In this document: positions 53,684-61,844 of the stretch, one piece after another
Numbering within the stretch: position 1 is the stretch's first letter
How the letters are laid out: each line of letters starts with the position of its first letter
Assembly: GCA_963717115.1 (NCBI GenBank)
Contig: CAVQVO010000011.1
Coordinates: forward strand, 5,861 to 69,860
DNA length: 64,000 nucleotides
Origin: an uncultured Acidimicrobiales bacterium
Lineage (GTDB): Bacteria; Actinomycetota; Acidimicrobiia; Acidimicrobiales; SZUA-35
Reading direction: 5' to 3'
Program-made: the position numbers and the translations under genes
The notes under the pieces: generated by a model
The model's input: only the letters and a program-made list of their open reading frames with translations
The model's database searches: none
What the model was told of the DNA's origin: nothing

Positions 53684-54255
53684 CGCAGTTCTCCCAACTC
53701 CAGCTTCCTGACGCCGAGTTCGGCGCGCAGCACCGACTTGGCCTTGCGCATCCTGCCCTTCACGGTGCCCTCCGGCAGCCCGAGCATCCGACCGGCCTGG
53801 CGGGCGGTCAGACCGTCGAAGACCATCGCCTGGACCACATCCAGGAGCTCGGGCGACAACCGCGCCAGCGCTGCGCCGGCATCGCCGAACGCGATGTGTT
53901 CGAGCACCCTCGCCTCGGCGCTGTCGGCCGACATCGATGCCGGGAACGGGTCGGGACGTGACTGTCGGCCGGCACGCCGGAGCTGGGTCACGAGCTGGCG
54001 AACGGCGATGCCCCAGATCCAGGCGGCGACGTCGCCCTCGTTTCGCCATCGCGGGGCACTCTTCCACACCGCGAGGAACGTCTCCTCCACCGCATCGGCG
54101 ACCAGTGCATCGTCGAAGCACCGGGTGCGCAAGCGGGCGGTCAGCCACGGCACATGCCGGTCGTAGAGGCACCGCAGCGCCTCGAGATCCTCTGCTGCGA
54201 TCGCAGCGACGAGGGCGGCATCGTCGAATGTGTCGAGGTGGCGCCGGGCCCTCAT
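53680..54255 (-). CDS. ECF RNA polymerase sigma factor
   Basis: DAVEETFLAVW, AWIWGIAVR and LGLPEGTVKGRM. Confidence 0.93.
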   Translation of the reverse strand: MRARRHLDTFDDAALVAAIAAEDLEALRCLYDRHVPWLTARLRTRCFDDALVADAVEETFLAVWKSAPRWRNEGDVAAWIWGIAVRQLVTQLRRAGRQSRPDPFPASMSADSAEARVLEHIAFGDAGAALARLSPELLDVVQAMVFDGLTARQAGRMLGLPEGTVKGRMRKAKSVLRAELGVRKLELGELR

Positions 54256-54418
54256 CGCGCGAGTCTCGCAGAGTCGATCCGGTCGACGAGGCGGACCAGG
54301 ACGACGTGCCCAAATGGTTCGTCGATTCGTCCCGGACACGTCATACCCCTCTGTCGCTCGAGCGGACGATTCGGGATCACGCCGACCGCAGAAACGACAC
54401 GACTGCGGCCAGCTTGGC

Positions 54419-54460
54419 GACATCGACATCGGCATCGACATCGACATCGACATCGACATC
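54419..54460. repeat. Intergenic hexanucleotide microsatellite (GACATC)x7
   Basis: Seven units, one of them GGCATC. Confidence 0.9.
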
Positions 54461-54547
54461 GTGACGCCACGACGCCACGGACCGCCGATCTCGTTCGACG
54501 TGATCCCGAACGGCACCGTCGAGCGACAGCCGGTTGAGGAGGTCATC

Positions 54548-56187
54548 ATGTCCGAGAACATCCAGCCAGGGTCCGCGACGCCGGCGCGAACAGACGCACC
54601 GGAGCGCGTGGTCGTCGGGAGGAACGCCATCGTCGGGCGGCGCCGGCGCCATGATTGCCGCACCGCACGGGCGGGACGTCTCGCTCGACGACTGGGAGCG
54701 GCGATACTCGTGACAGCAGCCGCCGCCTGCGGTTCCGGCAGTGACGGGGCGGAGGAATCGGTGTCCAGCGCAGTCGTGGCGGCGCCCGACAGCGAGGTGG
54801 TGCAGCTGCGGATCGGGACCAACGATCCAGCTGATGCTCCGACGGCGTTCGCAATCGCCGAGTTCGTCCGTCAGGTCGAGGAGCTGTCCGCCGGTTCGAT
54901 CATCGTCGAGCCGGTGTGGCGCGCTGCCGGCGATCCGGCGCCCGACGACTGGGATCAAGCGGTCGCGGCGAAGGTGATCGCTGGTGACCTCGATCTCGCC
55001 CTGGTCCCGTCGGCTTCGTGGGACACCGAGCACGACATCGTCCTTGCGGGCGTTGAACGCTCCGTTCCTCGTCGATTCCCAGGAGCTCGTCGCGGCCATC
55101 GTCTCGGGTGACATCGCCGGGGAGTTGATGGCGGGTCTCGACGAAACGGGTGTCACGGGGCTGGCGTTGCTTCCCGAAGGACTCCGGTACGTGTTCTCGT
55201 ACGGCGACGCATTGACGGCGCCCGGGCGACTTCGAAGGAGCGACGATCAGGTCGCCACGATCCGACACGGTGTACTCACTGTTCGAGGCGTTCGGCGCAA
55301 CCGCCGACGACCCGCAGGGGTCCGAGTTCGACGAACAGGCCGCCGACGGGTCACTGGCCGGGGTCGAGTCGTCGTTCGCCCGGGCAGCCGGATTGCCGGG
55401 CGGCCCGACGACAGCGGTCGGAAACCTGCCGCTGTTCCCCAAGGTCAACACGCTCGTCGTCAACGACGCCAGGTTCGCGACCTTGACCGAAGCCCAACAG
55501 CAGGTGCTCCACGATGCCGCAGCGGAGACGCTCGACTCGATCCTCACCGACGCCACCGGCGAGGCGGCTCTCGCTGCCGACTACTGCGCGGCCGGTGGAA
55601 CGATCGTCGCAATCGACGACGGGCAACTCGCGGCGTTCGAAGCAGCGGCAGCTCCGGTCTACGCCGAACTCGAGGCCGACCCGTCGACCGGCGCCATGAT
55701 CGATCGCATCGACGACCTCGAGCTCGAGCTGCCAACCAGCTCGTCGATCGTGCCGTGCGGCCCAGGGCAGGACACAGCCACGACGGAACCCTTCGACGGC
55801 GACACCATCCCGATCGGCACCTACGAACGCACGATCACGACCGCCGACGGATCCGACCTCGACCCGACCATCGTCGCCGACATCCTCGGCCCGAGCGGCG
55901 AGAAGCTCACCGAACTCGAGATCGCAGCCGACGCCTGGACCCTCTACGAGGTCACCGACGACGGAGAACGCAGCGTCGCCGACCTCGGCACGTACCACTA
56001 CGACTCCGACGGACGCTGGATCACGGTCAGCACGAGCGGTGGATGCTCCGGGTGCGTCATCGGTTTCGACTGGACCCTCGACGGCGACCAGCTCACGCTC
56101 ACCCTGGCCGAGGTCGCCGATCATTCGATCTATGACGACGGCGTGCGCCTCATGACCGAGGGCGGCTACCAGGCCACGGTGGAGTAG
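54548..56187 (+). CDS. DctP-like TRAP substrate-binding lipoprotein with an extra C-terminal domain; frameshifts near 55030 and 55225
   Basis: GAGGAGG RBS, AAACG lipobox, FVRQVEELSAGSI, LRALNAPFLV, GLR, GATIRSP and FATLTEAQQQVL. Confidence 0.8.
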
Positions 56188-56838: not shown

Positions 56839-57627
56839 ATGGCAACAGCGACCATTGGTGACCTCCTCAAGACCTGGCGATCCCGAAGGTCGTGCAGTCA
56901 GATGGCCCTGGCGCTCGACACCGGTGTCTCGACCAGGCACCTCAGCTTCGTCGAAACCGGCCGATCCAGGCCCAGCCCGGAACTGGTGTTGGCTCTCGCC
57001 GAGCGCCTCGAGGTCCCGCTGCGCGAACGAAACACGATGCTGCTCGCCGCCGGCTATGCGCCCCGTTTCACCAGCCATCCGCTCGACGACGAGGCCATGG
57101 CGCTGATCCGGTCGTCGCTCGAGCGGGTTCTCGATGCGCACGATCCCTTTCCCGGTTTGGTCCTCGACAAGCATTGGAACATCGTCATGGCGAACCGGGC
57201 AGCCACCCGGCTGCTCGAGCTGCTCCCACCGGAACTGCGCCAGGAACCGGTCAACCTGTTCCGGGTCAGTCTCCACCCGGATGGACTCGCCCGGTACACG
57301 ACCAACTTCGACCATTGGGGTGGCTACCTGCTCCGCCAACTCGACCGTCTCGCCGTCAGGTTCGGCGACGACGAATTCCCGTCGCTCCGCAACACGGTCG
57401 AGCAATACCCGAACGTGGCCGCTCTCGCCCGAAACCCGGCGAGGGCGACCGACGCCGATCTGGTCATCTCCTGCGAACTCGACCTGTTCGGTCGGCAGCT
57501 CCGGCTCTTCACCACGCTCACGACCTTCGGATCGCCACTCGATGTGACCCTCGACGAACTCCTCATCGAGCTGTTCTTTCCTGCCGACACCCCGACCGAG
57601 CACGCGCTCGCAGACCTCGACCGCTGA
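56839..57627 (+). CDS. XRE-family regulator with MmyB-like ligand-binding domain
   Basis: SQMALALDTGVSTRHLSFVETGRSRPS, LLAAGYAP and IELFFPAD. Confidence 0.93.
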   Translation: MATATIGDLLKTWRSRRSCSQMALALDTGVSTRHLSFVETGRSRPSPELVLALAERLEVPLRERNTMLLAAGYAPRFTSHPLDDEAMALIRSSLERVLDAHDPFPGLVLDKHWNIVMANRAATRLLELLPPELRQEPVNLFRVSLHPDGLARYTTNFDHWGGYLLRQLDRLAVRFGDDEFPSLRNTVEQYPNVAALARNPARATDADLVISCELDLFGRQLRLFTTLTTFGSPLDVTLDELLIELFFPADTPTEHALADLDR

Positions 57628-57813: not shown

Positions 57814-60441
57814 ATGCGAGTGAATGAGCGGATCCTGCCGGGCGGCGACGTCACGTTCGTCTTCACCGACATCGAGGGATCGACCAGACTCCTGAGGGAA
57901 CTCGGTGACGAGCGATACGCAGAACTCCTGGAGCGCCACGACGAGCTCCTTCGGATCTGTTGGGATCGACACCGCGGCATCGAGGTCGGAAACGAGGGGG
58001 ATTCCTTCTTCGTCGTCTTCACGCAGCCGAGCGACGCCGTTCTCGCCTGCACCGAGGCCCAACTCGCCCTCGCCTCGGAGTCCTGGGGGCCCGGCGGGCA
58101 GATCCGGGTTCGTATGGGCATCCATTCCGGGATCGCGCAACCTCGCAACTCCGACTACGCGTCGCTCACGGTTCACCAGGCTGCGAGGGTGATGTCTGCG
58201 GCGTCGGGGGCCCAGGTGTTCATGACGAAGCAGGTCGCAGCACGGATCGACGACGACGACGGGTACTCCGTCAACGTGATCGGCAGGTATCGGATCCGCG
58301 ACTTCGACGGCCCGGTCGAACTCTTCGAACTGCGGGACGACCGATGGCCGGCGGCCCATTTTTCGCCACGTGTCCCGCCCGCCGATACGCACAACCTGAT
58401 CCGTCCTCGCACCTCGTTGATCGGCAGGCAGGAGGAGCTCGAGAACGTCCCCGAGTTGGTCGGGTCGGGTGTGTTGACGTCCTTGGTGGGGCCGGGTGGT
58501 GTCGGCAAGACCCGCTTGGCGATCGAGGTCGGTTTGGCGTGCGCTGCACGTTGGTCAGACGGCGTTTGGATGGCAGAGCTCGACCGCGCGACCACGCTCG
58601 AGACCATGGTCGGCTCGGTCGCTCGAGCGTTGGGGTTGCGGCTCGATCTCGGAGCCGATCCGATGGACGAGCTGCTCGATCGGTGTTCGCAACGCAGCTC
58701 CTTGCTCATCCTCGACAATTGTGAGCACCTCCTTGGAATGTGCGCGCAGCTCGCATCGGGGCTGCTTCACCGAGCCCCGAGCATGGGTGTGCTGGCAACG
58801 TCGCGCACCCCACTCGGGCTCGTGGCCGAGCGGGTCTGGAGGCTCGGCCCCCTGGACACGTCACCAACCACCGGACCGACAGGGTCGACACCGGACGCAA
58901 TACGACTGTTCCGCGACCGGATCGAACTCGGCCGGTCGACGGTTGGATCGTCGTCGAGCGACGATGAAATCGGCAGGATCTGCGCCCAACTCGATGGGAT
59001 CCCCCTGGCGATCGAACTGGTTGCGGCCAATGCGCACCGGATGCCCCTGAGCGAGATCTCGGCTGCGCTCGACGATCATGTCTCGTTCCCCGAGGTCCGG
59101 GACCCCACCGTTCCCGAGCGTCACCGCTCACTCGACAACGTGCTCGAGTGGAGCCACGTCCTTCTCGACGACGACGGACGAGCGTTGCTCTCGAGCGTCT
59201 GCGACCTTCCTGCCGGGTTCGACATCGAGACCGCCCATGCTGCGGTCGGCGGGCTCGGGCAGCAGCAACTCGGCCGGACGATGAGGGCCACTTGGTCGCT
59301 CGTCGACAACTCGCTCATCGAACCCGATTCGTCGTCAGGGGGGCGCAGGTATCGCTGTTCGTCGCTCGTCAGGAACTTCGCCGTCACCCGCACCGATACT
59401 GCGAGCCGAAGCGTCTGCACCGCTCGGTTGATCGATCACTATCTGAGGACCCTCGGCCCACATCGCACGCCTGATCAGGCATGGGCGAGTCTCCTGGGTG
59501 AGGAGCTCGACAATCTGCGCCACCTGACGATGATCGGCTCCAGCGCTCCCATCGAGGATCGCCAGGCTCTGGCTTGGACGATCGGCCGCTATCTGGACAT
59601 GACGGATCAGTTCGCATTCGCCATCGCCGAACTCGACTCCTTCGCCAGGCATCTCAGCGACCCGACCCCCGAGCTCGTCGCAATTCGATCGCTGATCGCC
59701 GACATCCATCTTCGACGAGGAGACCTCGAGTGCGCCGAGGCGGAGATCGCCGTTGCGGAACGGCTCCTCGCTCAGGTCGGTCCGGTCGAGTGGGACGACG
59801 TCTGTGTCCCTCGAACTCGTGGCGATATCGCATTGCGGCAAGGCAACACGGACCTCGCCCTTCGAATCGCGCTCGATGCTCTGGAGACCTCGCCATCACC
59901 GCGTGGGGCTGCACGGGTCTGGGATCTGATCGGGATCATCCATGCGACGGCCGACGACCCGGTCGAAGCGGCCATCGCATTCCGCCGAGAACTCGAGCTG
60001 TGGAGGGAAGTCGGCTCGTTCGCCCCCCAGGCGACGACGCTCGGAAACCTTGCGGAAGTGGCGCTTCGTGCCGGCGACGAGCGGGCTGCGGCCGAGTACC
60101 AGCTGGGTTGTCTCGACATCGCCATGGAACTCGGACAGCCGGTTCTCTCAGCATTCTCGATCGTGGTGGCGGCCCAACTCGCTGCGCTGCGTCAGCGCTG
60201 GCCCGACGCCGTACGCCTCCAGAGCGCTGCCGATCACGCCCTCGAGAGCATCGGATACGTCATGTACGACAGCGACAAGGTCCAACGCCGGCAGATGTTG
60301 AACGAGGCAGCAAAAGAGCTGACCGAAGCAGAGGTCGCCAGACTGCGCGACGCTGGAGCCGATCTCGACCTCGGGACCGCATCGACGGAGGCATCGGCAT
60401 TCCTGCGGAGCCTCATCAGGAATGGGGTGGCACATGAGTGA
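57814..60441 (+). CDS. Class III nucleotide cyclase + STAND (NB-ARC-like) NTPase + TPR-like repeat protein
   Basis: TFVFTDIEGST, EGDSFF, RMGIHSG, Walker A GPGGVGKT, Walker B LLILDNCEH, LDGIPLAIEL and a helical-repeat C-terminus. Confidence 0.92.
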   Translation: MRVNERILPGGDVTFVFTDIEGSTRLLRELGDERYAELLERHDELLRICWDRHRGIEVGNEGDSFFVVFTQPSDAVLACTEAQLALASESWGPGGQIRVRMGIHSGIAQPRNSDYASLTVHQAARVMSAASGAQVFMTKQVAARIDDDDGYSVNVIGRYRIRDFDGPVELFELRDDRWPAAHFSPRVPPADTHNLIRPRTSLIGRQEELENVPELVGSGVLTSLVGPGGVGKTRLAIEVGLACAARWSDGVWMAELDRATTLETMVGSVARALGLRLDLGADPMDELLDRCSQRSSLLILDNCEHLLGMCAQLASGLLHRAPSMGVLATSRTPLGLVAERVWRLGPLDTSPTTGPTGSTPDAIRLFRDRIELGRSTVGSSSSDDEIGRICAQLDGIPLAIELVAANAHRMPLSEISAALDDHVSFPEVRDPTVPERHRSLDNVLEWSHVLLDDDGRALLSSVCDLPAGFDIETAHAAVGGLGQQQLGRTMRATWSLVDNSLIEPDSSSGGRRYRCSSLVRNFAVTRTDTASRSVCTARLIDHYLRTLGPHRTPDQAWASLLGEELDNLRHLTMIGSSAPIEDRQALAWTIGRYLDMTDQFAFAIAELDSFARHLSDPTPELVAIRSLIADIHLRRGDLECAEAEIAVAERLLAQVGPVEWDDVCVPRTRGDIALRQGNTDLALRIALDALETSPSPRGAARVWDLIGIIHATADDPVEAAIAFRRELELWREVGSFAPQATTLGNLAEVALRAGDERAAAEYQLGCLDIAMELGQPVLSAFSIVVAAQLAALRQRWPDAVRLQSAADHALESIGYVMYDSDKVQRRQMLNEAAKELTEAEVARLRDAGADLDLGTASTEASAFLRSLIRNGVAHE

Positions 60442-61844
60442 CTCGTCGCCGTACCGCTGGACCGATTCGGTCGCAGTCGAGTGGAACGACGCAGGTGGAT
60501 ACGCCTATCGGCCCGGTGAGGTCCTGCTTCGAGGCAAGGCGGCGATGAGATTCGTTCAGCGAATCGAGCCCGACGTGGCCGTGGAGCCTCTCGAAGACGC
60601 GATCCGGGAGCTCTTCGCTCAGGTCGAGGCACCCGATTCGGTCGAAGCGTTCATGGCCAGCGAAGCCGTCCCGCCCGGCGTGTGGCAATGGCGCCGACTG
60701 ACCGGTGTGACCGACGTGGTCGGCGTCGTTCGCGCTGCGAGGGCGGCCGGCCACCGGGTCCAGCCGAACCACGTGCTCTTTGCCGACAACTGCTCGTGCG
60801 GGGAATCGTGTCCTCCGCACCCGTCCCTGGCGAACGACCTCGCCGGGCTGCTCGGCAACCCGCTGCGCGCCAACCCGCTGCGTGCGAACCCGTTGCGTGC
60901 GAACCCCTTGCGCGCCAACCCGCTGCGTGCGAACCCCTTGCGCGCCAACCCGTTGCGTGCGAACAAGCCGCCGGTCAACAGCGCGGTCCCGGCCCCCGAG
61001 GTCGACGTCGTGGAGACCGGACTCCCTCAGATCGATCCGAAGCCACGGGCGATCGTCTTCGACACGGGCTATGCCGACGATGGATTTCCGCTCCTCGCCA
61101 TCGCAGACATCTCGGGGGCGCGCGAGGTGCCGGACGCCATACCGGTACTCCTGGGCGGCGATGGGTATCTGGATCCGGTGGCAGGCCACGGAACGTTCAT
61201 TTCCGGCCTCGTCCAACTCCTCAGCCGAGGGACACCGATCACGGTGAGGCGCGGTCATCGGCCCACTCGGAGACGCAGACGAACTCACGCTGTCGGCCTG
61301 GCTCCTGGGCCAACTGATCCTGGACTCTGCCGAGGGCACGACCGAGAGCTGGCCGAGAACGGTGTTCAGCATCTCGATGAGCGGAGACCTCATCAGCCCC
61401 ATTGCGTTGGTCGGCGAGGTCGTCTCGTTGGTCCAGACGAAGGGCATCACGGTGGTGGCATCGGCAGGAAACGCTGCTGCCTGCCGTCCCGCCTATCCCG
61501 CAGCGCTTCCGGGAGTCATCTCGGTCGGCGCCCTCGGTCCATGCGGGCCCGCCGAGTTCACCAACTACGGACCTTGGGTACGGGCCTGTGCGCCGGGGGT
61601 CGACCTGATCAGTTCGTTCTTCGGATTCAACGGTGCGAATGTCGCGATCAACGGAGTCGACATCGATGACTTCCGCGGCTGGGCGTACTGGAGTGGTACC
61701 TCGTTCTCGGTCCCGATCGTCGTTGCCGCGCTGATCAACGACATGCGACTGCGCGGTCGAACGGGAAAGGAAGCGGTCGACGCGATCATCGATGCCCCGC
61801 ATCTCGCTCGGATCCCGTGCCTCGGCACGATCGTCAACATGTAG
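60434..61844 (+). CDS. S8 subtilisin-like serine protease with internal ANPLR repeats; one frameshift near 61250
   Basis: FDTG (Asp), GHGTF (His), SAGN (oxyanion Asn) and SGTSFS (Ser). Removing one base near 61250 joins ORFs 60422..61669 and 61362..61844 via AVIGPLGDADELTLSAW. Confidence 0.9.
60854..60964 (+). repeat. 15-bp coding tandem repeat: GNPLR + (ANPLR)x6 + AN
   Basis: Units GCS AAC CCS YTG CGY; differences among the six ANPLR units are all synonymous. Confidence 0.95.

Follow-up and report, generated by a model that had tools for sequence, protein, structure and literature searches.

We describe a two-gene unit in a 64,000-nucleotide stretch of DNA from an uncultured Acidimicrobiales bacterium (contig CAVQVO010000011.1 of assembly GCA_963717115.1; the whole stretch is hereafter called the window), in which a gene for a protein of 875 amino acids (aa), composed of a predicted class III nucleotide cyclase, a STAND NTPase and a TPR region, is directly followed by a gene for a signal-less pro-subtilase (S8) that carries seven tandem NPLRA pentapeptides between its prodomain and its catalytic domain. 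Related pairs form a conserved, tightly linked two-gene unit that is rare and patchy; purifying selection keeps the repeat peptide, not the repeat DNA; and the pair is a re-wired form of the protease module of the ECF54 gene context, with a partner and an array for which we found no earlier description. We tentatively favour, at somewhat less than an even chance, a reading in which input comes from the zymogen, the TPR region binds the repeats as its ligand, and the predicted cyclase delivers the output.

Results

The linkage of the subtilase to a STAND-TPR gene, set beforehand as a check on the initial annotation of this DNA, is borne out. With a subtilase profile of 24 intact homologues and a set of 172 subtilase loci (the best 80 loci each from genomes and from metagenomes, plus 12 regions taken from relatives; the window, duplicates and close kin are included), we found a cyclase-STAND-TPR orthologue directly upstream and on the same strand at 39 loci, where the STAND stop and the subtilase start often overlap or nearly abut, and TPR-CHAT, sigma and/or small conserved genes nearby at 102. 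None of the 172 loci carries both partner types. The remaining 31 are unassigned: in 26, less than 800 bp of upstream sequence is visible; L055 is a STAND locus with a broken frame; two further ones end just past the gene; and L033 and L151 are real or possible exceptions. The reverse test agrees: a TPR profile in 401 genomes of the class gave nine places above 300 bits (seven genomes), all nine beside a subtilase (five lie in, or are nearly identical to, profile members; the independent count is 4/4), and a subtilase adjoins none of the nine weaker matches. Distances among the S8 and among the STAND proteins are correlated (rho 0.71, 21 pairs, 0/2000 permutations).

The hosts are mostly uncultured actinobacteria; the STAND loci come from Acidimicrobiia (most), Thermoleophilia, Kineosporiaceae and Mycobacteriales. 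The subtilase profile found no match in four congeneric genomes, and the module is confined to its own genome among 401 genomes of the phylum, with no match in the other 400. Among representatives clustered at 50% identity, 109 score at least 200 bits, including a single generic TPR protein, and the ESM Atlas returned only generic S8 and TPR clusters. No third conserved gene was found in the flanks (of 323 flank genes, the largest cluster takes in 4). The S8 enzymes from viral contigs are all distant, at most 38% identical, and none matches the prodomain; the single match in the plasmid collection lies on an 11.9-Mb record, not a true plasmid. One genome (G360) has the pair three times, in near-identical form and each time on a different contig (L188, L203 and L205), either through real duplication or as an assembly effect.

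The subtilase half of the unit has relatives in a described setting. In Actinobacteria, the ECF54 context comprises an ECF sigma factor, a subtilase, a TPR-CHAT protein and a carboxypeptidase-regulatory-like protein (PMC7826278, PMC8999054), a predicted module that the available text of its descriptions does not explain. The window subtilase is homologous to these subtilases, and in both contexts the protease is paired with a TPR-bearing signalling protein. The sigma, TPR-CHAT and small-protein genes, however, are absent from the window locus and from all 39 STAND loci, where a single cyclase-STAND-TPR gene replaces the whole set; the only CHAT match in the window's own genome lies on another contig. 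We called the sister loci ECF54 by gene context, not by the group's own sigma model. In a FastTree tree of 136 catalytic domains, from which the motif parser had dropped several loci and in which the outgroup was not cleanly separated, a single clade of 60 rows (support 96) holds every STAND-linked subtilase along with 14 sigma/CHAT-linked pentamer enzymes, and it lies within a larger set of sigma/CHAT-linked enzymes that have hexamers or no repeats; the tree requires at least two changes of partner. The portions consulted of the ECF54 descriptions contain no repeat array, Cys cluster or STAND partner (PMC7826278, PMC8999054), and in the full-text literature, most subscription papers lying outside its scope, neither the pairing of a cyclase-STAND-TPR gene with a subtilase gene nor the array was found described. 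The initial annotation had called the combination undescribed, which holds for the pair; it is not wholly without precedent, the subtilase belonging to an ECF54-associated family. Two of the loci (L047:7404-9895 and L071:7272-9963) have tandem subtilases beside the TPR-CHAT gene.

The subtilase gene of the window (60434..61844; forward strand, as are all features given here) starts with an ATG at 60434 and overlaps the upstream gene, which ends with the TGA at 60439-60441, by 8 nt. Its N-terminus, judged by eye and not by a predictor, has neither a hydrophobic nor a twin-Arg signal. The full S8 set is present: the catalytic Asp D210 (61061..61063), the catalytic His H252 (61187..61189), the oxyanion Asn, which is followed four residues on by a Cys (61470..61484; Cys at 61482-61484), and the catalytic Ser in the motif WSGTSF (61701..61703), distributed over two frames by one extra base that we discuss below. 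The triad and the oxyanion Asn are invariant in 99 relatives. The AlphaFold model of an intact relative (L049; mean predicted local distance difference test (pLDDT) 87.9) is a subtilisin fold with an N-terminal prodomain, and its top Foldseek matches are pro-Tk-subtilisin, PCSK9 and pro-subtilisin E; transferred by alignment, its boundaries place the folded prodomain of the window enzyme at 60476..60784, with the last strand QPNH. The enzyme is likely a latent cytoplasmic zymogen.

The junction between the two domains contains a Cys/His cluster (CSCGESCPPHP, 60791..60823), followed by the pentapeptide array (60854..60964), within the stretch that leads from the last prodomain strand to the catalytic Asp; at the DNA level it is a 15-nt tandem repeat of 7.4 copies at 60847-60964, coding for NPLRA seven times. 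The initial annotation had rightly called the subtilase repeat-bearing and had given the repeat too little weight. Arrays occur in all 39 STAND loci, two of them degenerate, with 3-17 copies each. The unit is constant within a protein and differs between proteins and lineages, and the STAND-linked unit is a pentamer of A/G, N/S/H, Pro, a hydrophobic residue (34/34) and a variable residue. Across 37 STAND arrays, in which adjacent units had to match in at least 66% of their DNA and end units were dropped, a rule that favours clean arrays, adjacent copies differ by 217 synonymous and 29 replacement changes (ratio of replacement to synonymous differences, pN/pS, 0.039); the core copies of the window array differ only synonymously, with 15 such differences and no replacement. 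Selection thus acts on the peptide, and the pN/pS rules out a neutral DNA tandem repeat. A folded solenoid is not supported by the L049 model, in which the array follows closely on the last prodomain strand and has low confidence (pLDDT about 50) between a confident prodomain and a confident catalytic domain.

In 22/36 relatives that lack repeats, many of them close kin, the corresponding position, seven residues past the Asn of the PNH motif, is occupied by one small-x-Pro element, and the array therefore looks like an amplification of it. The sigma/CHAT-linked subtilases have pentamers, hexamers or no array. Those beside sigma/TPR-CHAT genes (among L019-L155, e.g. L038, L044, L051, L058 and L061) also include selected arrays (pN/pS 0.058, in an analysis that took in a few out-of-frame stretches), often of hexamers (NPATFA, PNPGAF and TPYPGG units) in up to 15 copies, and a few family members (P0032, L133, L141) have longer or compound units (10-mers and 11-mers).

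A Cys cluster usually precedes the array. Among 133 enzymes, the junction Cys cluster and the Cys beside the oxyanion Asn are both present in 84, both absent in 41 and discordant in eight, two of which are parser errors; after phylogenetic pairing the co-occurrence is not significant (5 pairs, p 0.25). A possible metal or disulfide latch is no more than a lead. Some arrays (e.g. L026, L031 and L119) are broken by a second Cys/Gly-rich insert.

The partner gene (57814..60441) was annotated initially as a cyclase-STAND-TPR fusion lacking a recognisable helix-turn-helix (HTH), and domain matches and intact motifs agree: a Pfam scan gave Guanylate_cyc at aa 11-162 (E 8e-11), TPR_12 (E 1e-8), AAA_22 below its cut-off, and no HTH family. 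The protein is 35-43% identical to 25 orthologues across its full length. Its STAND module extends from Walker A (GPGGVGKT, aa 226-233) to Walker B (LLILDNCE, with D301 and E304; 58489..58725 for the whole) and has an intact GxPL motif; K232 and D301 occur in 57/57 full-length relatives, among which Walker A and Walker B are invariant. The protein has the full STAND/NB-ARC order of parts, with superstructure repeats coming after the Walker A, Walker B, sensor and GxP motifs; the module matches AfsR, Sr35 and Apaf-1, and the best solved match of its NB-ARC part is AfsR.

The cyclase domain (57844..58299) is of class III, with D19 kept in 56/57, D63 in 57/57 and R125 in 57/57 relatives; its best solved matches are Ma1120 and LipJ. 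The transition-state site is His or Asn in 56/57 relatives and His in the window. LipJ has the same His in place of the transition-state Asn, and Ma1120 shows activity although it lacks this Asn (PMC4215837); activity of the predicted cyclase is therefore plausible. It is not a canonical adenylyl cyclase: the adenine-selecting Lys site is G59 in the window and Lys in only 4/57 relatives, and the adenine-selecting Asp site is Asp in 34/57, both base-selecting sites thus being variable.

In the TPR region (59611..60393), W660, R701, N745, E748 and Q763 are near-invariant, each in 56/57 relatives; an Asn of this kind clamps peptide backbones in TPR grooves. The nearest solved TPR structures are those of Pins/LGN, and the relatives end at most 49 aa past the TPR match. 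A predicted complex between the repeat segment and aa 530-870, the TPR half, scored 0.01, with no controls folded, and counts neither way. Nine of the 57 relatives have an N-terminal SARP region (BTAD in 9/9, a winged helix in seven), whose addition before the cyclase is a possible direct DNA-binding output; the SARP-bearing partners are P0036, P0047, P0062, P0066, P0090, P0093, P0095, P0111 and P0125, and one lies at L025:4386-7925. The host genome has a single copy of the subtilase and about ten further cyclase or STAND paralogues.

Discussion

Our results place the pair beside several known systems. Rv0386/AfsR-type regulators end in a C-terminal LuxR HTH, which the window partner lacks, and the partner differs from them further in its dedicated conserved TPR clade, its linkage to a subtilase and its variable base-selecting residues. 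The intracellular subtilisins also lack a signal peptide and carry, ahead of the catalytic domain, an element of Pro plus a hydrophobic residue (PMC6220982); the window family differs in keeping a folded prodomain and in repeating the element 3-17 times, and its repeat deviates from the [LVI]-[IFLV]-P-[YFH] pattern of those enzymes at the first two positions, which sets it outside the group. In IetAS/SgiAT, as in the pair, the gene of a cytoplasmic subtilisin is immediately preceded by that of an ATPase, with the difference that the window ATPase is an 875-aa STAND protein with cyclase and TPR parts and not a simple AAA antitoxin (PMC5006074); the comparison with IetAS made in the initial annotation does not extend to membership, as neither PADLOC nor NCBIfam matches IetA or IetS here and the pair was not found on plasmids. 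For the sister context, the Craspase Csx29-Csx30-CASP-sigma system offers a model in which an activated TPR-CHAT protease cuts a sigma inhibitor; the window locus, by contrast, has no Cas7-11 or RNA trigger and no CHAT or sigma gene (PMC10028731). IetAS (PMC5006074), Craspase (PMC10028731) and DdvA (PMC11506125) are analogies, not families of the window pair.

Comparison of the two contexts suggests how the parts may work together. The subtilase is the constant part and its TPR-bearing partner varies (102 ECF54-type and 39 STAND-type loci). It is the exchanged partners that bring the outputs (sigma, cyclase, and SARP in 9/57), and the STAND loci have no conserved gene that might encode a substrate. 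On these grounds we favour a route from protease through TPR to output. The selected, multi-copy and apparently flexible junction peptide is the obvious candidate for the messenger. Some trigger, perhaps a redox change or a metal sensed by the Cys cluster of the junction, would free the protease, and self-processing at the prodomain junction would release or expose several identical peptides per molecule. The classic subtilisin substrate AAPF is resembled by A-N-P-hydrophobic, and the most plausible cut would fall after the hydrophobic residue of the latter. The TPR groove of the partner may then bind the repeat peptides, the multiple copies of which would amplify the signal; the STAND ATPase would be activated by this binding, and the predicted cyclase domains would meet and make a cyclic nucleotide; and cyclic AMP or cyclic GMP could act via cyclic-nucleotide (cNMP)-binding proteins encoded elsewhere, with the fused SARP DNA-binding domain as an alternative output where it is present. 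Among the three mechanisms that the initial annotation offered (control of the protease by STAND oligomerisation, control by a cyclic nucleotide, or production of the TPR ligand by the protease), the last appears to fit best.

Genes for cNMP-binding proteins make up 4 of the 125 nearest flank genes, compared with 10 matches in the whole of the window's own genome, a post hoc and weak observation; the cNMP-binding or CRP-like genes beside the pair are L003:3724-5346, L036:4457-5161, L119:2565-3509 and L128:8343-9029.

Several observations weigh against this reading. The five TPR residues are near-invariant while two positions of the repeat vary widely, which a sequence-specific ligand does not predict, and the TPR regions of the STAND and CHAT proteins are only generically similar (hhalign probability 67%). 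There are 33 ECF54-type subtilases with neither array nor Cys cluster, and the array was therefore dispensable for the ancestral module. Arrays stop after the Asn-position residue in 23/34 cases, which also fits an inhibitory register blocked by Pro. Both base-selecting positions of the cyclase are variable and it may be a weak enzyme. Finally, the co-divergence of S8 and STAND is expected from linkage alone, and two subtilases of the clade (L033, N-terminally truncated, and L151, intact with about 800 bp visible) have no upstream partner.

The strongest competitor, in our judgement unlikely, runs in the opposite direction: the array would keep the protease shut as a multi-copy inhibitory pseudo-substrate, the STAND-TPR protein, once activated, would pull it off, and the protease would be the effector. 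Intracellular subtilisins are indeed blocked by an x-x-Pro-aromatic pro-peptide (LIPY/F) with Pro at P1' (PMC6220982), and the arrays of our family mostly end on the residue that precedes Pro; the single small-x-Pro element of the 22 non-repeat relatives, many of them close kin, points the same way. That element presumably lies where, in pro-subtilisins, the residues just after the autoprocessing bond are found. The misfit of the repeat to the subtilisin inhibitory motif at its first two positions argues against such an inhibitor, however, and one copy fills an active site, which leaves 3-17 identical copies unexplained; moreover, no substrate gene is conserved in the STAND loci, and the STAND protein already has an output domain of its own.

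We consider it improbable that the pair is a defence guard in which the array baits foreign proteases or binders and the STAND protein monitors the intact zymogen, whose loss would trigger cyclic-nucleotide signalling or growth arrest. The patchy spread (0/4 congeners, 7/401 genomes of the class and one of 401 in the phylum sample), the difference of the repeat unit between lineages, and the toxin-antitoxin, AIPR or patatin genes in a few flanks would suit a guard, as would the swap of cyclase for caspase in published conflict systems (PMC7159879). Nevertheless, neither protein fits a PADLOC model, and no described model of Avs or another bacterial NLR defence system is matched; the flanks are mostly metabolic, and their PADLOC matches (14/125, counted without a control set) are largely to generic domains; and no close relative lies on viral contigs or true plasmids. 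Baits usually diversify within an array, and these arrays are homogenised. The conflict and defence framing of the initial annotation gains no positive backing from these data: there is no defence-island signal and no PADLOC system match, the flanks are mostly housekeeping genes, and viral and true-plasmid members are lacking.

A slightly smaller chance attaches to a case in which the module is real in relatives and the protease gene of the window is a true pseudogene. The catalytic Asp and His are read in one frame, the oxyanion Asn and the catalytic Ser in the following one, with a one-base shift near 61250-61253 (feature 61250..61254). Such a reading can appeal to the frameshift as it stands in the assembly, to the rather long tree branches of the window proteins, and to the nature of the bridging contigs, which come from two runs (X1 and X3) of one study on near-identical strains, not from reads of the source strain. 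Still, both of the two bridging contigs, which match the window at 98-99% identity, are one base shorter at 61253, and every catalytic residue is retained. In addition, 21 of 268 orthologous genes change frame relative to 400 kb of a congeneric genome (23 shifts over 94,419 aa, with the genome that carries each individual shift not assigned), among them a gene that we take, from its sequence, to be RNA polymerase alpha-like. We conclude that the frameshift at 61253 is very probably an assembly error and that the subtilase is probably intact in the living strain; the possibility, raised initially, that reads would confirm the frameshift and leave the protease dead finds no support in either contig. 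A solute-binding-like gene at 54230-56187 of the window, split into two open reading frames with a break at about 55230-55270, probably reflects another assembly indel.

Least likely of all, and in our view very unlikely, is a fused precursor-protease that would make an exported product by cutting or cyclising the repeats it carries, with the STAND-cyclase no more than a linked regulator: identical, selected cores of lineage-specific sequence and weak sub-threshold matches (of the partner to STAND-TPR families associated with ribosomally synthesised and post-translationally modified peptides, of the protease to PatA/PatG) hint at it, but the flanks hold no conserved transporter or tailoring enzyme, the NCBIfam matches lie far below cut-off and reflect shared domains, and the ECF54-type context suggests intracellular signalling.

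The protease-to-TPR route can be extended to a more general and more doubtful proposal, namely that a family of cytoplasmic pro-subtilases may keep multiple copies of a peptide second messenger of its own in the prodomain junction, under a cysteine latch, and release them in a burst to interchangeable TPR receivers, an NLR-like cyclase in one context and a caspase-like CHAT protease plus sigma factor in the other. To our knowledge, the activating ligands of many actinobacterial STAND-TPR regulators are largely unknown. If the proposal is true, it would provide a defined ligand for this large orphan class, a peptide signal that acts inside the cell, is amplified by a protease and has a code specific to each lineage, and an explanation of both modules together with a peptide-triggered bacterial NLR. 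The candidate ligand can be read from the gene and purchased as a five-residue peptide, and a cyclic-nucleotide output is easy to measure. Should the peptide hypothesis fail, the array would still be an unusual multi-copy, selected zymogen linker.

Neighbouring features of the window

A scan of the locus for promoters and terminators gave one site and no terminators and is uninformative. Just upstream of the pair, at 56839-57627, lies a gene for an MmyB-like regulator (HTH_31 + MLTR_LBD); relatives of it occur near the pair at two other loci (L001 and L128), at different positions. Further upstream, at 54418-54461, the six-base repeat CGACAT is present in 7.3 copies and reads as alternating Asp-Ile or Met-Ser.

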